From a virus (taxonomy: Duplodnaviria; Heunggongvirae; Uroviricota; Caudoviricetes): 64,000 nt of DNA. The notes beneath the pieces were generated by a model that ran no database searches, was not told where the DNA came from, and saw nothing but the letters and a program-made list of their open reading frames with translations. The position numbers and the translations under genes were made by a program. Positions within the stretch are counted from its first letter, which is position 1, and every line of letters begins with the position of its first letter. Positions 10,023 to 30,148 of this stretch are shown here, piece after piece. The stretch covers positions 1 through 64,000 of the IMG/VR virus record IMGVR_UViG_2799113015_000003; one strand, 5' to 3'.

Positions 10023-10333
10023 ACCAACCCCAATGCCTTCATCTCGGCGTGCGCCTCTACCACCTCACGGTCGAACCGGTCGCGGGTGTACTCGCCGCCA
10101 AGGTGGGCGATGGTGTCCTCGACCATCCGAATCCACCATTCGGCCACGCCATCAAGGCCACCCATCGTGGCGGTTTCGCCCACAAGGATGAACCACGGGT
10201 GCGCGTTGGCTTCCAGGCACTCATCGCCATACGCCATAGAGATAGGTACACCAGGCACCGAACACACTCCGAGTGCGGGCTCCTTCCCGCAGACATCACA
10301 AATCAGTTCTGGCAGTGCAGGCTTCTCACTCAT
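10019..10333 (-). CDS. hypothetical Cys-containing protein, ~104 aa
   Basis: Start set at an internal ATG giving an ATGA overlap with the stop of the Pth2 gene. Confidence 0.4.
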   Translation of the reverse strand: MSEKPALPELICDVCGKEPALGVCSVPGVPISMAYGDECLEANAHPWFILVGETATMGGLDGVAEWWIRMVEDTIAHLGGEYTRDRFDREVVEAHAEMKALGLV

Positions 10334-10683
10334 AGCAGTTTCAGCTCCCCTGTAATCGGCGCGAGTTCGTCGGCGGTCGCTGGACCAATGGCACAACAGG
10401 TAGTTGTGAGCACGCCGTGGAACTCAGTCAATCCGTTGTCAGTAATCAATGAATTCGGGATTCCGGCCTTAATTGCCTTATCCCACAGCTCAATCAGCGC
10501 ATCCTCACTCTCGACACGCACACATACCTTGGTGAAACTCCCCTGCAGCCACTCTTCAACGCGCGGATCCGAGAGGTATTCGAGCGTCGCAGCCAGCGAT
10601 GCATGCGCGCCCTGTGCGACCATCTTGCCTGCACGCATACCAAGGTCTTTACGCATGACGATCATTTGCTTCAGCTCACTCAT
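10330..10683 (-). CDS. pth2: peptidyl-tRNA hydrolase, PTH2 family
   Basis: IVMRKDLGMRAGKMVAQGAHASLAA matches the conserved PTH2 core (e.g. human PTRH2 [21 protein letters not shown]). Confidence 0.7.
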   Translation of the reverse strand: MSELKQMIVMRKDLGMRAGKMVAQGAHASLAATLEYLSDPRVEEWLQGSFTKVCVRVESEDALIELWDKAIKAGIPNSLITDNGLTEFHGVLTTTCCAIGPATADELAPITGELKLL

Positions 10684-10812: not shown

Positions 10813-12051
10813 CTAGGTTCCCTTCACATTCAGCACCTGGCGAAGCTCCGTGACAACCTCAACCAGAGGGGCGGCGTCACTCATCACGACGTCGATTGGC
10901 TTGTAGCAGGAAGGGATCTCGTCAATCCATTCCTCGCCGTGGCGGTACTCGATGCCTTGCATCTGGTCGGCCAGGTCTTCAAGGGTGAAGAGTTCCTTCG
11001 CCTTGGTGCGAGAGAATCGCCTCCCGGCACCGTGCGGTGCAGAGAACAGGCCATCCTTGTTGCCCCGACCCCGGACCACATAGGAGCGTGTCCCCATCGA
11101 GCCGGGGATAAGTCCCAGCTTCCCCTCTGACGCATCGATAGCGCCCTTCCGGGTCAGCCATACCTTCCGCCCATCGATCTCAGTCTCAACCGTGTAGTTG
11201 TGGTGACAGTTCACGCGGTCGATCTCGACGCGCTGCGCCTGCACTCCAAGCCAATTCGCGAACACCTGGACGTAGCGGTCCATCATCTCGGCACGGTTCT
11301 CGTAGGCGAACTTTTGTGCCCACTGCAGATCCTTGATGTAGCGATCGAACTCAGCGGTCCCCTCAGTGAGGTAAGCAAGATCCCGATTCGGCAAACGAAA
11401 TTGAGGAGCGGCCTCGCCTGAGCACTTCTGTAGGTACTCATAGCGCGCAACGGCTACCTTAATGTGGCGCTGAGCGATCTTGTTGCCCACGCCCCTACTT
11501 CCCGAGTGCAGGAACAGCCACACAGTGTCTTCCAGGTCGACACACAGCTCGATGAAATGGTTACCGCCACCAAGTGAGCCCAACTGCTCCATCCACTTCG
11601 GGGAGTGAGACAGGTCTACATCCAGCTCGTTCTGAAGCCGGATCAGGCCCTCAATCCGATTACGTGTGAACGGGAACCGCTTAATGTCCGAGTTATAGTT
11701 GCCTGGCGACAACGGGATTGCACCCTCGATGGCCACGCGCAAATCGGGCAGGCGGGGCATATCAGCCAACAGGGCGTCATCCATGATGTTGGCCCACTCG
11801 TAGCGGGTCTTCACCGCGATCATGCCGCAGCCGATGTCCACGCCAACAGCCGCAGGAATCACAGCCCCCACGGTGGGGATGACCGTTCCAACAGCTGAAC
11901 CCTTGCCACTGTGCGCATCAGGCATCAGCGCCATGTGCGGGTAGATGAACGGCAGCGAGGCCGTCTCCTTAGCCTGATCGATCGTCGTGTAGTCGATCTC
12001 TGAGGCGAACGAGATGATGTTGTCACCAATGCGCTGGCTCAATTCCTTCAT
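10813..12051 (-). CDS. rtcB: RtcB-family RNA ligase (3'-phosphate/5'-hydroxyl RNA ligase)
   Basis: MPDAHSGKGSAVGTV, GVDIGCGM, GGGNHFIEL and SAPHGAGR are hallmark RtcB active-site motifs. Confidence 0.9.
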   Translation of the reverse strand: MKELSQRIGDNIISFASEIDYTTIDQAKETASLPFIYPHMALMPDAHSGKGSAVGTVIPTVGAVIPAAVGVDIGCGMIAVKTRYEWANIMDDALLADMPRLPDLRVAIEGAIPLSPGNYNSDIKRFPFTRNRIEGLIRLQNELDVDLSHSPKWMEQLGSLGGGNHFIELCVDLEDTVWLFLHSGSRGVGNKIAQRHIKVAVARYEYLQKCSGEAAPQFRLPNRDLAYLTEGTAEFDRYIKDLQWAQKFAYENRAEMMDRYVQVFANWLGVQAQRVEIDRVNCHHNYTVETEIDGRKVWLTRKGAIDASEGKLGLIPGSMGTRSYVVRGRGNKDGLFSAPHGAGRRFSRTKAKELFTLEDLADQMQGIEYRHGEEWIDEIPSCYKPIDVVMSDAAPLVEVVTELRQVLNVKGT

Positions 12052-12127
12052 ATACCAATGCTATTGAGCGATTACGGGTTCATGTGGGTACGAAAAAGCC
12101 CCCAGCTTTCGCTGAGGGCTCTTCGAG

Positions 12128-12198
12128 TAGTCCATGCGGGAATCAAACCCGCACCAACACCTTGAGAGGGTGGTGTGCTCTCACTACACCAATGGACC
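12128..12198 (-). tRNA. tRNA-Glu (anticodon CTC)
   Basis: T-arm GCGGG/AATCAAA/CCCGC (reverse complement); 7-bp acceptor with G1-U72; anticodon loop CTCTCAA. Confidence 0.7.
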
Positions 12199-12204
12199 TT
12201 AGGG

Positions 12205-12543
12205 CTATTGCTCAACCCACTTGCCGGATTCACGAACCTCTGTCTTGAGGTTAACCGGCCACATATCACGCTCCACTTGGGCACGTTGTAGGTCTTCGCG
12301 GCCCACCTGACGTTTCACCCATAGCTGGAACTTTGGTGAGCTCGCCATGCGCCTGAACGCGGCCTGCTTGTTCTGCAGCTGGCTACGCTCCTCGCGCGAC
12401 TCACCCACCGCGCCAGAAGGCTCATGCGTAATCCGCACGCCCGTCTCGCGCTTGTTCTGGTTTTGACCGCCTTTGCCCCCAGATCGGAATGTGTCCACAC
12501 GACAATCCGAGAGGGTGACAGACAGTACCCGTTCTCTACTCAC
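12205..12543 (-). CDS. ArfB-like peptidyl-tRNA hydrolase (class I release-factor GGQ domain protein)
   Basis: FRSGGKGGQNQNKRETGVRITHEPSG matches the RF-1/ArfB GGQ catalytic loop (E. coli ArfB [22 protein letters not shown]); ~110 aa with a basic C-terminal tail, as in ArfB. Confidence 0.65.
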   Translation of the reverse strand: MSRERVLSVTLSDCRVDTFRSGGKGGQNQNKRETGVRITHEPSGAVGESREERSQLQNKQAAFRRMASSPKFQLWVKRQVGREDLQRAQVERDMWPVNLKTEVRESGKWVEQ

Positions 12544-12544
12544 G

Positions 12545-12618
12545 TCAAGTCGACCGGATTTGAACCGGCGTCCCCCGCCGTGACAGGGCGGTGCTTTAGA
12601 CCTCTAAGCTACGACTCG
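12545..12618 (-). tRNA. tRNA-Asp (anticodon GTC)
   Basis: Acceptor pairs 12546-52 with 12612-18; anticodon arm CCGCC/GTGACAG/GGCGG. Confidence 0.7.
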
Positions 12619-12675
12619 AAAGAACGTTTGCCCCCAGTGGTTTTCGAGGCCACCGGGGCAGGTACGAACAACCTG

Positions 12676-12750
12676 AGCCAACTTTCTGGGAATCAAACCC
12701 TGGAGCTGCTTGGCCAAAACTCCCGTGGAGACGGTGCGAATTGAACGCGA
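12676..12750 (-). tRNA. tRNA-like sequence, isotype undetermined
   Basis: T-arm-like CTGGG/AATCAAA/CCCTG at 12686-12702, but acceptor and anticodon stems could not be paired by hand. Confidence 0.3.
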
Positions 12751-12800
12751 CCACACCAATCTTGCAAGGATCGGTCGCCACCTTGGAACATGCGCCCCCA
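12726..12800 (-). tRNA. possible tRNA-Ala (anticodon TGC), poorly folding
   Basis: Anticodon arm CAATC/TTGCAAG/GATCG gives loop CTTGCAA; T-arm GTGCG/AATTGAA/CGCGA is imperfect and the acceptor was not resolved. Confidence 0.3.
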
Positions 12801-12869
12801 AGGCCCCCGTTTTGACAAGACTGGGTCTGAACTTGGACGGTTACCTCAACGGAGCCGACAACCCTGTAG

Positions 12870-12943
12870 GGCCTCATCGAGGTCTCGAACCCCGCGCCTC
12901 TTCGTTACTAAGGAAGTGCTCTAGCCGGATGAGCTAATGAGGC
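12870..12943 (-). tRNA. tRNA with anticodon AGT (Thr?)
   Basis: Perfect 7-bp acceptor 12871-77/12937-43, D-stem GCTC/GAGC and a good T-arm; anticodon loop TTAGTAA gives the unusual A34 anticodon AGU. Confidence 0.55.
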
Positions 12944-12992
12944 CTGTTGCATAGGCGTTTTGAACAGGTGCCCTTGCAAGTGGCCTGTGGCG

Positions 12993-13065
12993 TACCCAGT
13001 CGAGGAATCGAACCCCGCTTGGCTGGATGTAAGCCAGCTTTCGTCCCAGACTAACCAGGCATGAG
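12993..13065 (-). tRNA. possible tRNA-Val (anticodon TAC)
   Basis: T-arm CGAGG/AATCGAA/CCCCG and a perfect anticodon arm GCTGG/ATGTAAG/CCAGC; acceptor pairing not confirmed. Confidence 0.45.
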
Positions 13066-13140
13066 AACGAGTGACCAGATTCGAACTGGCACGACCTGTT
13101 TGGAAGACAGGGATGCTAAACCGTTAAACATCACACTCGC
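13066..13140 (-). tRNA. tRNA-Gly (anticodon TCC)
   Basis: Acceptor 13067-73/13134-40; anticodon arm CCTGT/TTGGAAG/ACAGG. Confidence 0.7.
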
Positions 13141-13144
13141 ATGG

Positions 13145-13212
13145 AGCGGCAGAGGTGACTCGAACACCCTTGCAGCGGCTTAGGAGGCCACGCACTTTCC
13201 GGAACTACCGCT
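13145..13212 (-). tRNA. possible tRNA-Arg (anticodon CCT), short or atypical D region
   Basis: T-arm AGGTG/ACTCGAA/CACCC; anticodon arm GCGGC/TTAGGAG/GCCAC; only ~68 nt between the acceptor halves. Confidence 0.4.
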
Positions 13213-13215
13213 TGG

Positions 13216-13287
13216 TAGGTTCGCACAGAATTGAACTGCGATTGCCGACGTATCAGGTCGGTGTCCTTACCATTGGACGACGAACCA
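13216..13287 (-). tRNA. tRNA-Ile (anticodon GAT)
   Basis: Acceptor 13217-23/13281-87 (6 of 7 pairs); anticodon arm CCGAC/GTATCAG/GTCGG. Confidence 0.65.
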
Positions 13288-13288
13288 G

Positions 13289-13360
13289 TGGGAGCACCAG
13301 GGGTCGAACCTGGGATTCATGGGTAAGAGCCAAGAGTTATAACCGCTTAACTATACTCCC
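13289..13360 (-). tRNA. tRNA-Lys (anticodon CTT)
   Basis: Perfect T-stem CCAGG/CCTGG; acceptor 13290-96/13354-60; anticodon loop CTCTTAC. Confidence 0.6.
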
Positions 13361-13361
13361 C

Positions 13362-13433
13362 TAGGGCGCAAGGGATTTGAACCCTCAACTCGTAGATTAA
13401 AAGTCTAGGGTGATGCCGTTTCACCAACGCCCA
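13362..13433 (-). tRNA. tRNA-Lys (anticodon TTT)
   Basis: T-arm AAGGG/ATTTGAA/CCCTC; anticodon loop CTTTTAA. Confidence 0.6.
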
Positions 13434-13434
13434 G

Positions 13435-13509
13435 TAGTCGGCGCGAGGATCGAACTCGCACACACCGAGGTTTGAGCTCGGCGGCTTTGCCAGGTTTGCC
13501 TAGCCGACC
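13435..13509 (-). tRNA. tRNA with anticodon CAA (Leu codon UUG) but class-I length
   Basis: Perfect T-stem GCGAG/CTCGC, acceptor 13436-42/13503-09, perfect anticodon stem CCGAG/CTCGG with loop CTCAAAC; only a 5-nt variable region (75 nt total). Confidence 0.55.
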
Positions 13510-13567
13510 ATGCTCAGCATTTAACCGACCCAAGGCGGTTGGCACCCGTGAGGGCTGTTTGAACCGG

Positions 13568-13641
13568 TACTCCAAGAGGGATTCGAACCCACAACCTCCA
13601 GGGTCTAAGCCTGTCGCCTCTGCCAGTTGGGCTATTGGAGC
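13568..13641 (-). tRNA. tRNA with anticodon TAG (Leu codon CUA) but class-I length
   Basis: Acceptor 13569-75/13635-41; anticodon loop CTTAGAC; 74 nt with a short variable region. Confidence 0.5.
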
Positions 13642-13698
13642 TTGGTGCCGATATTGCCGCGTCGGCTTTACGGTGACTCCTACTCACCGCGCGCGTCG

Positions 13699-13770
13699 AG
13701 ACGAAGGCCGGGATCGAACCGGCGTGGGTCAGGGTTGCAGCCTGCCAGCTAGCCACTCACTCACTTCGCC
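13699..13770 (-). tRNA. tRNA-Cys (anticodon GCA)
   Basis: Perfect T-stem GCCGG/CCGGC; acceptor 13700-06/13764-70; anticodon loop CTGCAAC. Confidence 0.65.
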
Positions 13771-13778
13771 TTAAGCCG

Positions 13779-13943
13779 CTATTCTGCGGCGGGTGCTGCC
13801 TTCTTCGCGGGTGCCTTCTTGGCTACCGGCTTCTCTTCCACTGCGTAGTGGAAGTCCTCAAGGGCATCCATACGATCAATCAGGTCGTTTACCGCCTTGA
13901 CGATGTCGATATGGGCGATGCCCGTGCGCAGCTTGTCAGTCAT
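13779..13943 (-). CDS. small lysine/alanine-rich protein, 54 aa
   Basis: ORF MTDKLRTGIAHIDIVKAVNDL...KKAPAKKAAPAAE directly downstream of the HNH gene (ATGACTGA junction); below the ORF-track size cutoff. Confidence 0.25.
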   Translation of the reverse strand: MTDKLRTGIAHIDIVKAVNDLIDRMDALEDFHYAVEEKPVAKKAPAKKAAPAAE

Positions 13944-14337
13944 TGGTCGCCTCTGCTAGTCGTTTTCTGTAGTCGCGCTTACGATTTCTTGCTGCTAACC
14001 GACAGAGGCCGCAGCGGCACCCCCATCGGTCATACATTGTGCTTGTCCCATGGCGGGTTGGCCGCGTGCCATGCGTGAGCGGCATTTGGGCTGTGGTCTT
14101 GTCGCGATGACACCTCTTACAGAGGGGTTGACACTTCCTCAGCTCTGCCTGGAGTCGCGGCTCGGCCCAACTCCATATTCGGTGAGATGATTTCTCCATC
14201 GGATCGATGTGGTCGATCTCGAGTTGCTCAGTCGCACCGCAACTCACACACTTTCTGCCCTCAAAGTACCTAGCACGCCTTGCGGCCTGCCGTAGTCGTT
14301 CGTATTCTCGTCGGCGGACAGGATCTTTGATTGGCAT
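13936..14337 (-). CDS. HNH endonuclease (paralog 1) embedded in the tRNA array
   Basis: CVSCGATEQLEIDHIDP...CKRCH...GCRCGLCR HNH/zinc-finger motifs; start set at internal ATG 14337 (AGGGG RBS) because the longer ORF would overlap tRNA-Arg. Confidence 0.7.
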   Translation of the reverse strand: MPIKDPVRRREYERLRQAARRARYFEGRKCVSCGATEQLEIDHIDPMEKSSHRIWSWAEPRLQAELRKCQPLCKRCHRDKTTAQMPLTHGTRPTRHGTSTMYDRWGCRCGLCRLAARNRKRDYRKRLAEATND

Positions 14338-14432
14338 GTAACCCCTGTTTATATTGGGGTGACCGGACGGTACTGACCCGTCATCCTCGCGGTCACATCG
14401 CGAGATTCTCAACCTTTGAACTACGGTCACAG

Positions 14433-14507
14433 ACCCGTTGGCAGGATTCGAACCTGCATGCGTTGCGCCTTCGTAGGGCGGTGGGCGCTCCATTGCCCAA
14501 CAACGAG
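14433..14507 (-). tRNA. tRNA-Arg (anticodon ACG)
   Basis: Perfect T-stem GCAGG/CCTGC; acceptor 14434-40/14501-07; anticodon loop CTACGAA with A34, as expected for bacterial Arg-ACG. Confidence 0.7.
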
Positions 14508-14517
14508 AGCAGGCGGT

Positions 14518-14536
14518 TTAACGTGGAGTGCCCAGC
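14518..14536. repeat. 19-nt repeat TTAACGTGGAGTGCCCAGC (copy 1)
   Basis: Identical apart from one base to 14788-14806; lies 11 nt beyond the 5' end of tRNA-Arg on the tRNA strand. Confidence 0.5.
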
Positions 14537-14645
14537 ACGGAGCAGTTTTTCGTGATGTCTCAACACGGATGGTTCTTCCAGTTGTGAACCAACAACATTC
14601 ATGAGCCAGTTTCTACCCCAGCCGTGTACTGGCAACCCTCGTCCG

Positions 14646-14720
14646 TGGCGGGTACCGGATTTGAACCGGTGGTCTCAAGGTTATGAGCCTTGCGAGATGG
14701 CCGAGCTTCTCTAACCCGCT
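14646..14720 (-). tRNA. tRNA-Met (anticodon CAT)
   Basis: Perfect T-stem ACCGG/CCGGT and anticodon stem CAAGG/CCTTG with loop CTCATAA; 1-72 position is an A-C mismatch. Confidence 0.65.
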
Positions 14721-14787
14721 AAGTATGAGTGACTCATTCCGGCAGGACAGTTCGTCGCCTGCCGTATCCGCGCGAGTCAACGCGGCC

Positions 14788-14806
14788 TTTTACGTGGAGT
14801 GCCCAG
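14788..14806. repeat. 19-nt repeat TTTACGTGGAGTGCCCAGC (copy 2)
   Basis: Second copy, 68 nt beyond the 5' end of tRNA-Met. Confidence 0.5.
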
Positions 14807-14846
14807 CTTTTCACCAGTAGCTGTGGAACCTGGTTTCCCTTACACG

Positions 14847-14920
14847 CCGACTCTCCCCGAATCGAACGGGGGCGCACCGGGCTTCAACCGGTCGCTCTTA
14901 CCTAACTGAGCTAAGAGTCG
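14847..14920 (-). tRNA. tRNA-Phe (anticodon GAA)
   Basis: Perfect T-stem CCCCG/CGGGG, perfect acceptor 14848-54/14914-20 and anticodon stem ACCGG/CCGGT with loop TTGAAGC. Confidence 0.7.
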
Positions 14921-15214
14921 ATTGTTAGAGGCTGAGAGTACACCCGCTATCGAGAACCTTTCGCAGCATTATGGATTCGCTGCTTCTCCAGGCCATCCCT
15001 GACCTAGTTCTCACGCCTGGTCCGTTACCGTGAACCACTCGTTATGCCGAAAGCTACTCTGCGGCTTTCCCTTCGCGATGAGATGGCCGTCTCACTGCTG
15101 CAGTACTTGCCTACAAACCGCACTCACCTTGCGGGACTATTGTGCGGCCCAGATTCCCGAGGGTCTGGGATTAAGGCGCTTTTGCTCCTCGGCAGGGGAA
15201 GGACTTTTGCTTTT

Positions 15215-15290
15215 TATTGACGACGGGACTTGAACCCGCACATCCAGTTTCCAATAACTGGTGACCTACCGTTGGTCTACGCCATTCTCG
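15215..15290 (-). other. degenerate tRNA-like element
   Basis: Good T-arm ACGGG/ACTTGAA/CCCGC and an anticodon-like hairpin CCAGT/TTCCAATA/ACTGG with an 8-nt loop; no matching acceptor stem found. Confidence 0.25.
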
Positions 15291-15740
15291 CAGCGGAGAA
15301 TGATTTGACTAGAGACGTGCTTCCCCATGAAGTTCCGCACCCTTTTGGGGCACAGAATGCTTCACGCCTCTCGTGCTTTCGCCTGGCGGGGCTAATTACA
15401 CTCTCTCTCAACCGCATTGCGAGCCGTCGCCCGACGCGAGATCGATCATGGAACACGCCCTTGCTTGCGAGGCTCGGACTCAGTTCCTTCCGTTCCACAG
15501 GGCGCTTGTTCGATAGCCTTTTCACACGCACGTACGTGATGGTGTCCTCAGCACTTTGCCGTTGGACGGGGCGTAACTCGCAACCTGGCAGCCATCACTG
15601 ACTGCTCAAGGATTGGATTGCATGGATTGCCCTTGCGGGTGGTGGGTTGTCACCCCACCTTTCACCACCTTGCGGTGGCTTATGGGCCATGCCCCGAATG
15701 TCTTAACTATATCTCCCACAACAGAGTTCGTGTGGGTGAG

Positions 15741-15822
15741 CGGAGAGGCAGGTATTCGAAACCTACTGCGAACAGCGCTCCGGTTAGCAACCGGGCCTAG
15801 TCACCTAACTAGTTGCGCTCTC
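15741..15822 (-). tRNA. tRNA-Ser (anticodon GCT), class II
   Basis: T-arm CAGGT/ATTCGAA/ACCTA; anticodon loop TTGCTAA; ~13-nt variable arm; 82 nt. Confidence 0.55.
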
Positions 15823-15903
15823 CAAAATCCACCCCTTCGGCGTCGACACTGGACTCGACGCACCTGTATTCACTCTTAGCCATGGCCAGGCGGGTGGAGA
15901 ACG

Positions 15904-15988
15904 AGGAAGGTAGAGGAATCGAACCCCCGAGTTTTCAGGCTCGCCCCGGTATTCGACGCCGGTTGCCGACCATTCAGCGGTGCCTTCC
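15904..15988 (-). tRNA. tRNA-Ser (anticodon CGA), class II
   Basis: T-arm AGAGG/AATCGAA/CCCCC with G-U pairs; long variable arm; anticodon loop GTCGAAT; 85 nt. Confidence 0.5.
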
Positions 15989-16068
15989 ATATGCCCCATT
16001 TTGATAACGCAACTGGAGCGGCTGCGGGCAGTCAACTCATGGCAGGTACCTACCGGTTGACTCAAAAG

Positions 16069-16140
16069 CTGAAGACCCTGGATTCGAACCAAGAACTGCG
16101 ACGTTCAGAGCGTCGTGTGTTGCCGTTACACCAATCTTCA
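16069..16140 (-). tRNA. tRNA-Gln (anticodon CTG)
   Basis: Acceptor 16070-76/16134-40; anticodon arm CGACG/TTCAGAG/CGTCG. Confidence 0.7.
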
Positions 16141-16217
16141 AGGGCGATTTGACCGTATGCATCCGATCGGGAGCCGCAACCCAGCAGATCATTTGCCCCG
16201 GCCTGCCAGCGGAGTCG

Positions 16218-16299
16218 TACGGACTGATGGATTCGAACCACCACACTCGAAAGCTCTGATTTACAGTCAGAGATCCCTCGCCAATAGGAGAGAGTCCGC
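16218..16299 (-). tRNA. tRNA-Tyr (anticodon GTA), class II
   Basis: Acceptor 16219-25/16293-99; anticodon arm TCTGA/TTTACAG/TCAGA; 11-nt variable arm; 82 nt. Confidence 0.7.
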
Positions 16300-16302
16300 A
16301 TT

Positions 16303-16680
16303 TCACGATGCACGTTGTCGGCGCTTCGCGTTTCGGGCCCACAGGCGACACAGCCCGCATCGGCAGCCGTGTCGTTGGTACATTCTGCACGTGCCATGTC
16401 GGTAGGACTTGAAACCGATGGTGATCTCGGTTTGCGCGATAGTCTTCGCCTTGTGGCAGGCACGACACAGGGCTTGACACTTATCCAATTCTGCAATGCG
16501 TCTGCCTGCCGACCAGGACCAAATCGCGTTCGTAACCTTCACTGTTGGATCAATGTGATCCAGTTCAAGGTCACCCCCTGAACCGCAAGAGGCACATACC
16601 CTTCCGGCGAACCACTCGTCACGTCGACCTGCTCGCCACTCTCGTTGGTACCGGCGCTTCACTTCACCTGTAAGTGTCAT
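16303..16680 (-). CDS. HNH endonuclease (paralog 2) embedded in the tRNA array
   Basis: CASCGSGGDLELDHIDP...CRACH...YRHGTCRMYQRHGCRCGLCR aligns with the 13936..14337 product; the ORF is flanked tightly by tRNA-Tyr and tRNA-Asn. Confidence 0.75.
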   Translation of the reverse strand: MTLTGEVKRRYQREWRAGRRDEWFAGRVCASCGSGGDLELDHIDPTVKVTNAIWSWSAGRRIAELDKCQALCRACHKAKTIAQTEITIGFKSYRHGTCRMYQRHGCRCGLCRLWARNAKRRQRAS

Positions 16681-16684
16681 AACG

Positions 16685-16758
16685 CTGGCTTGGCAGGATT
16701 CGAACCTACACCTCGCGAGTTAACAGCTCGCTGCTCTACCAATTGAGCTACAGGCCAA
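16685..16758 (-). tRNA. tRNA-Asn (anticodon GTT)
   Basis: T-arm GCAGG/ATTCGAA/CCTAC; anticodon arm GCGAG/TTAACAG/CTCGC. Confidence 0.65.
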
Positions 16759-16876
16759 GAGCGAGGGTGGCCAGTGTCAGCGCGCTTTCTGACCTGTGCG
16801 ACCCTCTTGCCCGTCCTGCTTAGAGATGAGACGGAGCCGAAAACACCCGTACGGTCATCATACGTGATGACCAACG

Positions 16877-16951
16877 TCTGCCAGGCGCGATTTGAACACG
16901 CGATCTCCTGGACCCAAACCAGGCGGGATGGCCAAACTTCCCTACAAGCAG
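16877..16951 (-). tRNA. tRNA-Pro (anticodon TGG)
   Basis: T-arm GCGCG/ATTTGAA/CACGC; perfect anticodon stem CCTGG/CCAGG with loop TTTGGGT (G37); perfect D-stem GGGA/TCCC. Confidence 0.6.
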
Positions 16952-17194
16952 ATGATGGACGACACGGCCCAGGTACGGCACCTCAGGTCAGATCCTTTTT
17001 ATCGGAACCTACTGCGGGATTACCCTGCCATCCATATGGCCACCGGCATCCCGATGGCCGCGCGGAGATGTCTCTCCACATTCCCCGTACGACCGACGCT
17101 TTCCTGGAGCTACCTGTACTTGCGCATGTGGTCTGACAGCCGGGGCCACACTGACTAACGAGGATGTTCTCCCTTTGCACTACCGGCAGCCTAC

Positions 17195-17260
17195 GCCGCC
17201 AGTCGGGGCTCGAACCCGAATCTTCCTCTCGTGGAGCTGCCCGGAATTGAACCGGGATGT
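17195..17260 (-). other. two adjacent perfect T-arm-like hairpins (tRNA-like fragment or structured ncRNA)
   Basis: TCGGG/GCTCGAA/CCCGA at 17203-19 and CCCGG/AATTGAA/CCGGG at 17240-56, with no resolvable acceptor or anticodon arms. Confidence 0.2.
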
Positions 17261-17642
17261 TACGTGACTTGTCACAGTCTTCTACGTGCGTAGTCCACCG
17301 ATTGGGTCGGTTGGGGTGGACGCCTGTCCGAATCGAGACCTCAGACTCTCGACCGATCTTCCAGCACAGTTTGTCGCCTGAGAGCTGGTCATTGCGAGTT
17401 CCCCGTATTCGCGACGGTGAATTGGTACACGGAACGGGTAAACCGTTGTACCCCACCGGACTACGCAGCTAGGGCGTAGTCGGACTGAGCAGAAGCTGCA
17501 GTTATTGTGGTTGCACTGTTACGGGCGTTGCGGACCCGGCACGCTTCTCAGTAAGTTGACACGCAATCGAATACCTGTCAGCCCCATTGAAGTATCTATA
17601 TCTCTATGGAGTTTTCAAATGTCATGCCACACAGAGGCATTG

Positions 17643-17713
17643 CACGGGCGGAGAGAATCGAACTCCCACTAACGGGTTTGGAATCCGTTGTCCTGCCTTT
17701 GGACCACGCCCAT
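17643..17713 (-). tRNA. tRNA-Trp (anticodon CCA)
   Basis: T-arm GAGAG/AATCGAA/CTCCC; acceptor 17644-50/17707-13; anticodon loop TTCCAAA. Confidence 0.65.
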
Positions 17714-17843
17714 ATCACCGGAATTTCCGGCTCCGGTAACCGGTGTGAACTAAGTCTACGACCCACCCACATGAACCTCTAGCGAATAAAAACGGGCCCC
17801 GATCCACTGAGGAACCGGGGCCCAACGCCGAGAAAGCCTGCGC

Positions 17844-18023
17844 TTACTGCTTGGTTGGGAAGGCTCCGTCATCAGCCGGAATGGTGCCGTTCCACCATCC
17901 ATGGGCCTTCGCCTGGGACCACTTGTCGCGGTCAGCCGACCCATAAATGGCCTCGACTACCTGCGAGCGGAACAGGTCAGCCTGTGGGGTTCCCGCTACG
18001 GGCTTGTTGTTCTGATTCGCCAT
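17844..18023 (-). CDS. small hypothetical protein, 59 aa
   Basis: ORF MANQNNKPVAGTPQADLFRSQVVEAIYGSADRDKW... between the last tRNA and the HNH gene; below the ORF-track size cutoff. Confidence 0.25.
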   Translation of the reverse strand: MANQNNKPVAGTPQADLFRSQVVEAIYGSADRDKWSQAKAHGWWNGTIPADDGAFPTKQ

Positions 18024-18101
18024 GTGGTGAGTCCTTGCTTGAAAGTCTTTGATGCACAGACACTGTGCTTACATCTATATTCTAGCACGCGTTTGCTGTG
18101 A

Positions 18102-18419
18102 CTATTCCCGCCAGTTCCTTGACGTGGGATGTTTGACCTTCTTCTTCGCCTTCCCGCCTCGACGCTGATTGCAAACCAGGTGGCAGGGAACGAGATTCGA
18201 AACGTCGTAGCAGAGTGGGTCATCCCAGGCGAGATCTTTCACGGGGATGATGTGGTCTACGGTCGCGCTCATCGGGTCAGGCCATTTGAGGCTCAGGTCA
18301 ATGAACTCGTGGCATTCGTCGCAGATCTGGTTTGCACGCAGTACGCGGGCTTTCGCCTTATCGAACTTGACGCCAGTACGACCGAGAGAGCGCGGGCCGT
18401 TTTTCGATGAAGTCGGCAA
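18102..18419 (-). CDS. HNH endonuclease, 105 aa
   Basis: CDECHEFIDLSLKW...VDHIIPVKD...CHLVCNQRRG carries the H-N-H core and a zinc-binding Cys pair. Confidence 0.6.
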   Translation of the reverse strand: MPTSSKNGPRSLGRTGVKFDKAKARVLRANQICDECHEFIDLSLKWPDPMSATVDHIIPVKDLAWDDPLCYDVSNLVPCHLVCNQRRGGKAKKKVKHPTSRNWRE

Positions 18420-18440
18420 TGGGTTCCTCTACCCATTATC

Positions 18441-18656
18441 TCACGAGCTCTTGGCTTCGCTCTCTGCATCGCTGTAGCCCATGTCGTATCCCTCGTCATA
18501 ACCGGCGTCATAGCCTCGGCGGTAGTCTGCATTGCTTCTTGAGTCGCCCAGTCTGTGTGCCAAATCTTCCCAGCGAAGCTGCTCTTCGTGCTCCAGTTCG
18601 TACCAGTACTTCGAGCCGCATGGACGCCAGAGGTCGTATATCTCAGCGCCAGTCAT
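18441..18656 (-). CDS. hypothetical acidic protein with GYD repeats, 71 aa
   Basis: ORF; RGYDAGYDEGYDMGY repeats. Confidence 0.4.
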   Translation of the reverse strand: MTGAEIYDLWRPCGSKYWYELEHEEQLRWEDLAHRLGDSRSNADYRRGYDAGYDEGYDMGYSDAESEAKSS

Positions 18657-19059
18657 AGGTTAACTCCTTGTAGTCGTCCGGGTGATGAGTTCCGTTATTG
18701 CTCAAACGAATCCACCCGCGCCCCGGCCAAGTCACATCGAGGATGTCTAGGAAGTAGCGCTCTTTTACGATTTCGACAACGTCGAGCTTGATGGGATACC
18801 TATCTATTACAGACTTCATGGGTGTGACCCGATGGGCGTAGGGGAAGATCCAGTCATTGCGGCCATCGAAATATTCGATGCTCCCTGCCCACGGGTCCTT
18901 CAAGCCCGTTCCACCATCAACCGCTAGCCGAGTGATGCTGATGTAGTTAGTGCCCGCCTGCTCCTGCAGCTCATGACGCCACCAGCAGATGACGGTTGGC
19001 TTCTTTCGGGTGTCATCTGCCACCACTAGCAACCTGCTCACTGCGGCAACCCTGCCCAT
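18643..19059 (-). CDS. hypothetical protein, 138 aa
   Basis: ORF in an overlapping-stop arrangement. Confidence 0.45.
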   Translation of the reverse strand: MGRVAAVSRLLVVADDTRKKPTVICWWRHELQEQAGTNYISITRLAVDGGTGLKDPWAGSIEYFDGRNDWIFPYAHRVTPMKSVIDRYPIKLDVVEIVKERYFLDILDVTWPGRGWIRLSNNGTHHPDDYKELTYDWR

Positions 19060-19373
19060 CCTTCAAGGCGTGCCAGTCGGCGCTCAAGCTCATCCAGGCT
19101 TGCGTTCTGGGCCTTGTTAGCACTCTTGGTGGTTGCCCCAAATCCGGCCTTCACGAGAGCCTCTGCGGCTTCCTTTGCGGACAATGGGCTAATTCGATAC
19201 AACCCACTTACGACCTGCGCGTTCTTGAAGTTAGTGCGCCCATGCTTCTCGATGATCGCAGCCATCACATCAACGTCGGACACGTCCCCACCTACTTGGT
19301 GGGGACTGTCGGCATGACCGGCGTCGGCCAGCAGAGGAGCGCAATGCCCTTGTCCTTGGCGATGTCCAGACAC
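19038..19373 (-). CDS. hypothetical protein, 111 aa
   Basis: ORF; start position uncertain because it overlaps the SPFH gene end. Confidence 0.35.
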   Translation of the reverse strand: MSGHRQGQGHCAPLLADAGHADSPHQVGGDVSDVDVMAAIIEKHGRTNFKNAQVVSGLYRISPLSAKEAAEALVKAGFGATTKSANKAQNASLDELERRLARLEGWAGLPQ

Positions 19374-20152
19374 TTGGAGACCAGCACGTTGGGGTCGCGT
19401 GATACGGAGCTCGACAGAATCTCATTTGCGCGGGCCTGGGCCTCGGCAGTCTTCTGGTCCTGCAGGGCCACCGAGGTGGCAGCGCGGGACTGGTTGATTT
19501 GATTGATCTTCTGTTCGGTGCCCTCGTCGTAGTCGATCGTCGGGACAGCTACGTCCAAGATTTCGACTTGGGTGCCCACCTTGCTTGCAAGGATTTTGCG
19601 GGCCTGCTCCGACAGCTCTGGCAGTGGAGACTGGTCGAGATTCTTCGGGGCCAAAGGGTCGAACGTTGCGAACACCTCGTTCAATGCAACCTGCAGGTTT
19701 CGGGTGACCAGATTGGTTCGAACGTTGTCGAATGTCTTGTACTGGACGAATAGCTCTGGCGTGGCTTCCTGCTTAATCTGCCAACGAACTGACACATCCG
19801 CGTCTGCAGTGGAAGAGTTACCTAGACGAACCTTGATGCGGTTATCACCCTTGTGCTGGTCGATCTGGATCGCCCCGTCCATCTCAGTGACGTTCGCCCA
19901 CGGGGCCTTGAAGTGTAGGCCGTTGGACAGCGTTGAGCCATTCGGTCGCCCGAACGTGGTCTCGATACCAATCTGTCGAGTACCAACGGTGGTAATCGAA
20001 GCGAAGATACCGAAGATCAGCGCGAATACACCGGCACCGGCAGCGGTGAGGAGTGGGATGTATCGATCTTTGTGGGGCGCGATCGGAGTTGCAATAACGG
20101 CAATTCCGGCAACGATGAGCAGGATCAGGGTGATCCACATTGTGGGCGGCAT
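19292..20152 (-). CDS. SPFH/band-7 (stomatin-prohibitin-HflC/K) domain membrane protein
   Basis: N-terminal transmembrane helix ITLILLIVAGIAVIA followed by GIETTFGRPNGSTLSNGLHFKAPW, typical of SPFH domains. Confidence 0.55.
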   Translation of the reverse strand: MPPTMWITLILLIVAGIAVIATPIAPHKDRYIPLLTAAGAGVFALIFGIFASITTVGTRQIGIETTFGRPNGSTLSNGLHFKAPWANVTEMDGAIQIDQHKGDNRIKVRLGNSSTADADVSVRWQIKQEATPELFVQYKTFDNVRTNLVTRNLQVALNEVFATFDPLAPKNLDQSPLPELSEQARKILASKVGTQVEILDVAVPTIDYDEGTEQKINQINQSRAATSVALQDQKTAEAQARANEILSSSVSRDPNVLVSKCLDIAKDKGIALLCWPTPVMPTVPTK

Positions 20153-29794: not shown

Positions 29795-30148
29795 TCAGTT
29801 GCTGGACCATGGGTCTCGTAGATCGATGTCTCTATGATATTCGGCCCCCAGTAGGTTCATGTGGGTGAACTTTCCCAGGTGGTGCTGGTATATAGGGATG
29901 GAAGCTGGCTCTTCCCAAGGCCTTACGTGATAGCCCTCAGAGTGTGCTGCGTTGGGGTTGTGTTCAATCCACCCATGGCAACCGACCGTTCCGTGTCCGC
30001 ACACGTGGACGATGTTGTCAAGGCTCCACACGCCTCCCTGAGACCTCTTCTTGCGGTGGTGCATAGACAGTCCACCACCGATGCCGCAACGCTCGCATAG
30101 GCCACCTGAGCGGCGTGGGACCTCTACGCGGCACTGCTTCTCGGTCAT
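29795..30148 (-). CDS. HNH endonuclease, ~117 aa
   Basis: CERCG...HHRKKRSQGG...CGHGTVGCH; start set at an internal ATG that overlaps the stop of the upstream small ORF. Confidence 0.6.
   Translation of the reverse strand: MTEKQCRVEVPRRSGGLCERCGIGGGLSMHHRKKRSQGGVWSLDNIVHVCGHGTVGCHGWIEHNPNAAHSEGYHVRPWEEPASIPIYQHHLGKFTHMNLLGAEYHRDIDLRDPWSSN

Follow-up and report, generated by a model that had tools for sequence, protein, structure and literature searches.

We analyzed the HNH endonuclease genes associated with a tRNA array in positions 1 to 64,000 of virus record IMGVR_UViG_2799113015_000003; this whole stretch of 64,000 nucleotides (nt) is called the window. Two genes within the array, HNH-A (13936..14337) and HNH-B (16303..16680), appear to be free-standing homing-endonuclease-type genes that move between related phages and prophages together with the adjacent tRNA allele, and from the comparison of sequences we put the probability of this reading at roughly two in three. 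The aligned arrays showed a sporadic presence of HNH genes at no fewer than four junctions among near-identical arrays, with linkage to a particular tRNA allele in the case of HNH-A and HNH-B. That the nuclease drives the exchange, with every step of the mechanism described below, is what we infer from this comparison. Phage tRNA arrays are increasingly regarded as counter-measures to host codon bias and to tRNA-targeting defences, and the turnover of their content is therefore a real question.

The window and its relatives

ARAGORN found 21 tRNA genes and a transfer-messenger RNA (tmRNA) gene in the window, all on the minus strand, at 12127..17713. When region 12000..18500 was compared with a phage collection by megablast, the closest relatives were the M. 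abscessus prophages prophiT49-2, prophi86-1 and prophiGD54-2 (Vilmaviridae, Mclasvirinae; hereafter T49-2, 86-1 and GD54-2), with 89-97% identity over 76-79% of the query, and the M. smegmatis cluster M phages (Bongo, PegLeg, Rey and others) were more distant matches. Contig FVXS01000003.1 of assembly GCA_900141225.1 matched the window with 0 mismatches across 16,317 nt. These matches identify the window as a cluster-M-like prophage of Mycobacterium abscessus. It was collinear with T49-2 from about 16.5 kb to 78.9 kb (record position), except for eleven segments without a match, two of which contain HNH-A and HNH-B.

About 13 distinct arrays of the M. abscessus type, including the window, were compared. 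They comprised the three annotated prophages and collected loci (numbered L), of which ten were found with the exact sequence of the neighbouring 105-amino-acid (aa) HNH protein and two with a 98% relative of HNH-A; all collected loci were mapped with ARAGORN and tblastn, and L010 is the same as L019. Five more IMG/VR arrays of the same type were also checked for HNH-A and HNH-B; a sixth IMG/VR locus, L135, comes from the same contig as L037 and probably from the prophage that L011 represents. The flanks of the HNH genes were 97-100% identical between the window and L010, L011 and T49-2. Two further HNH genes of the relatives are named HNH-C (gp117 of T49-2) and HNH-D (a gene for about 197 aa in L019 and L011).

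HNH-A and HNH-B

The two genes, the tRNA alleles linked to them and the cassettes that they form are as follows.

13936..14337, minus strand: HNH-A, an intact 133-aa HNH endonuclease open reading frame (ORF) between tRNA-His and a 54-aa ORF
14355..14430, minus strand: tRNA-His(gtg) of type a, 76 nt, called by ARAGORN and directly adjoining tRNA-Arg; the allele linked to HNH-A
13944..14430, minus strand: cassette A (HNH-A and type-a tRNA-His), without counterpart in T49-2 or 86-1
16303..16680, minus strand: HNH-B, an intact 125-aa HNH endonuclease ORF of the phrog_4234 family
16217..16299, minus strand: tRNA-Tyr(gta) of type 1, 83 nt, called by ARAGORN; the allele linked to HNH-B
16142..16683, minus strand: cassette B (HNH-B, type-1 tRNA-Tyr and a 76-nt spacer), in place of the spacer, type-2 tRNA-Tyr and spacer of relatives

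By alignment, HNH-A and HNH-B are intact paralogues. Their products were 55% identical across 121 residues (E 9e-45), in agreement with a preliminary description of the window, which had aligned them along their whole length on shared motifs. Both passed the Pfam HNH profile (PF01844; 26.2 bits for HNH-A and 23.5 bits for HNH-B against a gathering score of 21.4), and the phrog_4234 'HNH endonuclease' profile matched both end to end (HNH-A, residues 1-130, E 1e-42; HNH-B, residues 2-124, E 1e-45). Pfam gave HNH only and reported no GIY-YIG domain in either protein, Rfam gave no intron in the region, and both genes stand alone, filling inter-tRNA spacers. Exact-sequence look-up gave no match for the HNH-A protein, for which the gene caller had taken a longer start (P0001), and none for HNH-B, which is not in the protein collection.

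The preliminary description had also placed both genes tightly between tRNA genes. HNH-B lies 3 nt from tRNA-Asn (16684..16757) upstream and 3 nt from tRNA-Tyr downstream. HNH-A starts 17 nt past tRNA-His, behind a GGGG Shine-Dalgarno-like run; on its other side the stop overlaps by 8 nt the start of the 54-aa ORF (13779..13943), which is followed by tRNA-Cys.

A profile search collected 3,045 proteins of the family at E ≤1e-8, mostly of about 120-135 aa and mostly metagenomic; matches of the profile to cytochrome c entries of the PDB in a sequence search were rejected as spurious, arising through the CxxCH motif. Among 90 members, C32, D41, H42, K48, W54, E64, K67, C72, H76, G96, C108 and C111 were invariant, and C29 and C68 nearly so. 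The motifs CxxCG, LE[IL]DHIDP, CxxCH and GCRCGLCR were likewise invariant or nearly invariant; the catalytic histidine (DH), the CxxCH and the two cysteine pairs for zinc are all present. An AlphaFold2 model of HNH-B (predicted local distance difference test score 92.4) had the HNH fold, with an N-terminal helix, the HNH core and two C-terminal helices bearing the HG..Y..GCRC..C motif. This C-terminal module probably binds DNA. HNH-D (L019, 12563..13156) carries two tandem copies of a C-terminal HG..Y..C.C..C motif, HGSTYAWSKAKCLCSVC and one of the CGERKAYQNGCRCEIC type, and this doubling suggests that the motif is a repeatable, putative DNA-binding module.

The HNH-B protein was compared with its orthologue in PegLeg, gp96. 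The proportions of nonsynonymous and synonymous differences (pN and pS) were 0.17 and 0.71 (the latter saturated), with a ratio of nonsynonymous to synonymous rates (dN/dS) of about 0.08; because of this ratio, the protein is taken to be maintained by purifying selection.

Presence and absence at the array junctions

First, the annotated arrays of T49-2, 86-1 and GD54-2 lack both HNH-A and HNH-B, and the five additional IMG/VR arrays held no further copy of either. HNH-A was found in the window, L019 and L011, with 98% identity in the latter two, and L135 carries HNH-A as well as HNH-D. It was absent from T49-2, 86-1, GD54-2, L017, L018 and L020-L025 by annotation, ARAGORN and tblastn. The phage collection held no relative of HNH-A above 51% identity, and the site between tRNA-His and the 54-aa ORF was unoccupied by an HNH gene in the M1 and M2 phages examined. 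Against T49-2, the breaks of blastn homology that bound cassette A fell between 13943 and 13944 and between 14430 and 14431. Every HNH-A-positive array examined had the type-a tRNA-His. The HNH-A-free arrays had a 72-nt tRNA-His of type b behind a 65-nt spacer, with the sole exception of GD54-2, in which a type-a tRNA-His (89% identity) occurs without HNH-A.

HNH-B was absent from all 12 other M. abscessus prophage arrays, in which the flanks are conserved. The break points of cassette B were identical in comparisons with T49-2, 86-1, GD54-2, L010 and L011 (between 16141 and 16142 and between 16683 and 16684), and one edge is the exact 3' end of tRNA-Asn. Every HNH-B-free relative had an unrelated 78-nt tRNA-Tyr of type 2, which is slightly decayed in 86-1 and GD54-2 and was not called there by ARAGORN. 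The first 42 nt of tRNA-Gln(ctg) (16100..16141) were 83-86% identical to T49-2, 86-1, L010 and L011 and 100% identical to GD54-2; since they are of the GD54-2 type, the exchanged tract would extend into tRNA-Gln. The same linkage was found in a second lineage. PegLeg has an HNH-B orthologue (gp96, 73% aa identity), followed after 3 nt by an 83-nt tRNA-Tyr (85.5% identical), and Bongo, a close relative of PegLeg, has the 78-nt type of tRNA-Tyr and no HNH gene there. In the phage collection, a type-1 tRNA-Tyr at ≥85% identity was found only in five M1 phages, all with an HNH-B orthologue.

Two further junctions are empty in the window and occupied in relatives.

14721..14845, minus strand: empty Phe/Met spacer, 125 nt, an HNH-free allele; GD54-2 is also empty
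13510..13565, minus strand: empty Leu(tag)/Leu(caa) spacer, 56 nt, an HNH-free allele; occupied by HNH-D in L019 and L011

At Phe/Met, T49-2 and L025 have HNH-C, which is 33% identical to HNH-A, PegLeg has a different HNH gene (gp102), and 86-1 has a non-HNH ORF. In the occupied alleles of T49-2 and 86-1 the whole spacer is swapped exactly, from the 3' end of tRNA-Phe to the 5' end of tRNA-Met. The 86-1 ORF was considered as a degraded HNH gene and rejected, as it is unrelated to the HNH family; we take it to be DUF4031-like. PegLeg has HNH genes at Gln(ttg)/Tyr, Phe/Met and Asp/Glu, LilhomieP at Pro/Ser and Asp/Glu, and an IMG/VR relative at tmRNA/Asn. In the parts of the arrays examined, Bongo had no HNH gene at Tyr or Phe/Met, and Rey had none.

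The preliminary description had proposed that HNH-free alleles at the same tRNA junctions be looked for in related phages. They exist for both HNH-A and HNH-B, and the window itself supplies such alleles at Phe/Met and Leu/Leu. Occupancy of the four junctions varies independently among near-identical arrays, as would be expected of mobile nuclease genes. All HNH genes of variable presence in the relatives sampled lie within the tRNA array and account for about half of the cargo that varies there. The proposal that tRNA gene content is shaped by HNH genes was also supported, in that HNH-A and HNH-B each go with a tRNA allele of their own, and it matches published statements.

Association of the family with tRNA arrays

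Members of the phrog_4234-type family were next to tRNA genes in other phage groups as well. In cluster C, Sebata gp172 lies between two tRNA-Thr genes and Rabinovish gp81 before three tRNA-Leu genes, and in cluster L, Crossroads gp113 lies between tRNA-Trp and tRNA-Leu, in each case on the same strand. Four of six members sampled from long contigs were in tRNA-rich regions, and three had a tRNA gene within about 40 nt. Among IMG/VR relatives, a tRNA gene was found within 100 nt in 39 of 79 loci and at least three (up to 37) within 5 kb in 42 of 79; around the 79 loci there were 2.45 tRNA genes per kb over the nearest 500 nt and 0.46 per kb at a distance of 4.5-5 kb. On these counts, the tie to tRNA arrays holds for the family at large, across many uncultured phages.

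The distance between the HNH stop and the next tRNA gene was also analyzed. The stop lay ≤10 nt from the next tRNA gene, or inside it, in 24 of 39 IMG/VR loci; in 20 of these 24 the reading frame runs on into the tRNA gene and stops only there, and in seven the stop is exactly at tRNA positions 8-10 (UAG/UAA). T49-2 gp117, PegLeg gp102 and the non-HNH ORF of 86-1 likewise end in tRNA-Met. However, other spacer ORFs abut the next tRNA gene in 76 of 133 cases (57%), as against 19 of 25 (76%) for HNH ORFs (Fisher P = 0.12). Abutment was therefore rejected as a hallmark of HNH genes or as a sign that they target tRNA 5' ends; judged by these counts, it is a property of ORFs packed in tRNA arrays, or of the way in which ORFs are delimited.

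ORFs without their own stop, which end in the next tRNA gene and often at U8-A9-G10, were seen in L001 (4343..4723), L002 (4572..4856) and L005 (4966..5415), and the same pattern, which is not specific to HNH genes, in IMG/VR loci L053, L085, L096, L098-L100 and L104. Cleavage by RNase P at the tRNA 5' end, if it occurs, would strip such messages of their stops, and this may concern the tmRNA and rescue genes of the same arrays. A speculative corollary is that RNase P trims or removes the stops of array ORFs and so links them to the tmRNA, RF-1-domain and PTH2 rescue genes described below.

Proposed homing and its alternatives

In the proposed mechanism, two related phages or prophages would meet in one cell, and the nuclease of one would cut the HNH-free array of the other at or near the junction. 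The genome that carries the HNH gene would then serve as template for repair of the break, and the conserved tRNA genes on either side as homology arms; in this way the gene would spread by break-induced or ordinary recombination. It would be copied across together with the adjacent tRNA allele, which differs from the one replaced and would thereby prevent recutting. The outcome would be that a cassette of an HNH gene and its own tRNA gene replaces a spacer with another tRNA allele, leaving the array mosaic and its tRNA variants changed. The linked tRNA-Tyr and tRNA-His alleles and the 42-nt tract of GD54-2 type in tRNA-Gln fit such co-conversion; the whole array is mosaic, however.

Several observations weigh against homing. 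GD54-2 is the only HNH-A-free allele with a type-a tRNA-His, and its flanks are 6-23% diverged. Between the window and PegLeg, cassette B is 74% identical at the nucleotide level with synonymous sites saturated, and has thus diverged like the whole genomes; this divergence fits an old polymorphism kept in each lineage as well as it fits recent transfer. HNH-B occurred in only one M. abscessus assembly, and is therefore rare rather than sweeping. In the alignment, the position that is usually Asn in the HNH motif is an invariant Lys (K67) in this family. Finally, non-HNH ORFs vary in the same spacers with the same exact boundaries: the 86-1 ORF at Phe/Met, small ORFs (gp125, gp126 and gp127) at Leu/Lys, and an RF-1-domain ORF at Asp/Glu, which L017 and L024 lack. 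Recombination of a general kind, acting on the conserved tRNA genes, could thus carry cargo of any sort.

The last of these points leads to the main rival, which we hold to be rather unlikely: the array may be a recombination hotspot in which tRNA genes act as repeated homology arms, so that any spacer ORF is shuffled and nuclease activity is irrelevant. The presence/absence pattern and exact spacer replacement of non-HNH ORFs, the identity that is patchy along the whole array, beyond the neighbourhoods of the HNH genes, and the generality of tight abutment are all what passive cargo would produce. It does not, however, predict that one HNH family recurs in tRNA arrays of phage groups unrelated to each other and at half of the 79 uncultured viral loci, and it sits poorly with HNH genes being about half of the variable cargo and with purifying selection on the protein. 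T4 SegB, the analogue for which experiments exist, drives its own inheritance (PMC2330249). The SegB precedent, together with the purifying selection and the family's tie to tRNA arrays, speaks for an active role of the nuclease.

We consider it quite improbable that the genes are domesticated weapons or adaptive tools which exclude the markers of rivals, or which trigger tRNA amplification or exchange against tRNA-targeting defences, as SegB does. SegB amplifies a segment containing tRNA-Tyr and thereby allows escape from Septu (PMC13096335), HNH-B goes with a tRNA-Tyr allele of its own in two lineages, its protein is under purifying selection, and the array lies among RNA-repair and ribosome-rescue genes (RtcB, tmRNA, RF-1 domain and PTH2). 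However, the window contains no tandem amplification, and HNH-A and HNH-B are rare among close relatives, unlike a generally useful gene.

A housekeeping nuclease hardly comes into question. In its favour, the genes are on the same strand within a presumably co-transcribed tRNA operon, and some phage HNH proteins assist terminases. However, HNH domains cleave DNA, the terminase region is distant, and most close relatives possess the same tRNA and packaging genes yet do without HNH-A and HNH-B. A role in tRNA precursor processing or DNA packaging is therefore very unlikely, and the earlier suggestion of a processing nuclease is left without support.

Comparison with known systems

A parallel to the proposed homing by HNH-A and HNH-B is SegB, a GIY-YIG homing endonuclease in the T4 tRNA cluster, which recognises the T-psi-C motif and spreads itself and neighbouring tRNA genes (PMC2330249). 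Its family shows a statistical association with tRNA genes, and SegB itself can amplify tRNA-Tyr as a way of escaping Septu (PMC13096335). Like SegB, HNH-A and HNH-B are free-standing nuclease genes in a phage tRNA cluster, absent from close relatives and probably passed on together with neighbouring tRNA genes, and they too belong to a family generally associated with tRNA genes. However, SegB has the GIY-YIG fold and no sequence relationship to HNH-A or HNH-B, which are thus analogues by position and pattern rather than family members. Cleavage, recognition site and biased inheritance were proven by experiment for SegB.

PegLeg gp96 is closer. It belongs to the same family and has the same layout (HNH gene, 3 nt, 83-nt tRNA-Tyr) with a tRNA gene 3 nt upstream, but this upstream gene is tRNA-Gln(ttg)-like, as against tRNA-Asn for HNH-B, and HNH-B resides in an integrated M. 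abscessus prophage. Pope et al. (2014), as cited (PMC5966550, PMC6409571), implicated adjacent HNH genes of cluster M arrays in the diversity of the tRNA repertoire; the idea as given in those citations is the same as ours, and the presence/absence pattern in cluster M (PegLeg with the gene, Bongo without) is also alike.

HNH endonucleases are the most widespread coding sequences in mycobacterial tRNA arrays (Morgado and Vicente, PMC5966550), and Behra et al. described tRNA islands with HNH genes and GOLLD RNA and drew the SegB analogy (PMC6582537). These islands resemble the array of the window, with HNH genes among tRNA genes, GOLLD RNA and tmRNA in the M. abscessus/chelonae group, and the HNH genes of chromosomal and plasmid islands were taken as signs of phage origin and mobility (PMC5966550; PMC6582537). 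The two papers report co-occurrence, but not presence/absence at single junctions or linkage to tRNA alleles. Small phage HNH nucleases of solved structure (GVE2 HNH, 5h0o; Geobacter Gme HNH, 4h9d; T5 SciA nicking endonuclease, 9qgv/9qgx) matched only over some 65 residues of the core. Both the N-terminal helix and the C-terminal HG..Y..GCRC..C module are peculiar to the family and have no counterpart of solved structure.

The concept that HNH genes diversify phage tRNA clusters is thus already published, and the gain here is in detail and generality, with no new principle. What is added is the series of presence and absence at junctions, the linkage of HNH genes with tRNA alleles in two lineages and the quantified tie of phrog_4234 to tRNA genes, parts of which may already be in Pope et al. 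(2014). The locus is a clean natural series: in a clinical pathogen, prophage arrays that are otherwise nearly identical vary in the presence of four different HNH genes. The tie of one HNH family to tRNA arrays would make the SegB paradigm testable in a second, unrelated nuclease family and in therapeutically used mycobacteriophages.

It is possible, though doubtful, that phrog_4234 proteins are widespread, dedicated tRNA-array homing endonucleases, the HNH counterpart of SegB, which use the repeatable C-terminal HG..Y..GCRC..C module to recognise the DNA of tRNA genes and cause one tRNA allele to be replaced by another, for example a 78-nt by an 83-nt tRNA-Tyr. If so, these enzymes would be a main force behind the turnover of tRNA repertoires in actinobacteriophages and in many uncultured phages, and this might bear on how phages evade host defences that cleave tRNAs.

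HNH genes outside the array

Pfam and phrog profiles confirmed three earlier proposed HNH genes that lie beyond the array.

18102..18419, minus strand: HNH gene, 105 aa, just upstream of the array; Pfam HNH 30.3 bits
20257..20769, minus strand: NUMOD4 and HNH_3 endonuclease gene, 170 aa; PF07463 34.0 bits and PF13392 32.6 bits, both above cut-offs
29795..30148 (or ..30199), minus strand: HNH gene beside the SSB gene, in fixed position; Pfam HNH weak, 21.9 bits; phrog_740 E 1e-32

The second has the NUMOD4 and HNH_3 domains of I-HmuI-like endonucleases. Orthologues of the first were at the same place in T49-2, 86-1, GD54-2, PegLeg, Bongo, LilhomieP, Rey and IMG/VR contigs, and the second was found at a fixed position in all of L016-L025, T49-2, 86-1 and GD54-2. 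All three kept an unchanged position in every relative sampled. By this comparison, they show no current mobility and stand apart from the proposed traffic in the array, and the homing-endonuclease traffic that had been suggested for the window as a whole is supported only for the array, where the HNH genes are sporadic within flanks of 97-100% identity. Relatives of the gene at 29795 had a tRNA gene within 5 kb in 0 of 17 loci, which is a weak and non-independent control as it comprises close relatives only; controls with other HNH families reached close relatives only as well.

The preliminary description had counted six HNH genes, and five were found: four members of PF01844 and the HNH_3 gene, by Pfam with 94 non-overlapping ORFs. 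This search covered the best 25 families, and a sixth gene from an unrelated nuclease family with a weaker E-value could lie beyond it. No sixth HNH gene was obtained with regular expressions, with phmmer using ten HNH and Endonuclease VII queries against all six-frame ORFs, or among the ORFs of the window-specific segments, and the annotation of T49-2, the closest relative, lists no counterpart of one. In L011 (939..1463, corresponding to 18411..19036 of the window), a 174-aa Endonuclease_7 (PF02945) gene replaces two small ORFs upstream of the 105-aa HNH gene, which is a further nuclease-gene polymorphism, outside the tRNA array.

Other elements of the array and the window

Besides tRNA and HNH genes, the array and its surroundings contain the following elements.

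14929..15372, minus strand: GOLLD RNA (RF02032), full length (model 1-416), 198.7 bits against a gathering score of 150, E 1.6e-55
17231..17585, minus strand: tmRNA, tag AASAQSDYALAA, a member of the array
12205..12543: RF-1-domain (ArfB-like) ORF, wedged in with a gap of 0 nt to tRNA-Asp and 6 nt to tRNA-Glu
10813..12051: RtcB ligase
10330..10683: PTH2

The RtcB and PTH2 genes frame the array together with tmRNA and the RF-1-domain ORF as an RNA-repair and ribosome-rescue set, and an ORF of the RlaP family occurs elsewhere in the window. At the Asp/Glu junction, PegLeg has an HNH gene instead of the RF-1-domain ORF.

The GOLLD match lies between tRNA-Gln(ctg) and tRNA-Phe, in a stretch where no gene is annotated in the three closest relatives, and a 'tRNA-???(tg)' call (15215..15286) is embedded in it. 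GOLLD RNA with an internal pseudo-tRNA has been reported in mycobacterial tRNA islands (PMC6582537), and a structured RNA about 430 nt long is mentioned for 81% of arrays (PMC5966550). Upstream of it, at about 15910..15997 on the minus strand, is a sequence like a class II tRNA-Ser(cga), without an ARAGORN or Rfam call in the window. It was 86% identical to a stretch of L017 called tRNA-Ser(cga) by ARAGORN, and its core (15944..15980) was 100% identical to a site annotated as tRNA-Ser or tRNA-OTHER in more than 100 cluster C phages. This sequence is either a decayed or a missed tRNA gene, and fills part of the unannotated region 15373..16067.

A scan of the array for promoters and terminators gave counts no higher than in shuffled sequence, and only one hairpin stood out. 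This terminator-like hairpin (17824..17793, minus strand; 13 pairs, 9 of them G-C, followed by a T run) lies between a 59-aa ORF and tRNA-Trp, and suggests that the tRNA array is a transcription unit of its own, starting after 17793.

A Band-7/SPFH membrane protein gene (19292..20152, minus strand) was absent in L010/L019, L018 and L023, and corresponds to two ORFs in T49-2. Where converging gene blocks meet, 2.5 kb on the plus strand (38960..41518) has no counterpart in T49-2. Its products are a Gln/Pro-rich protein of 415 aa (39081..40328) and two predicted membrane proteins (40349..41119 and 41121..41510), and the segment may be an accessory cassette expressed from the prophage.

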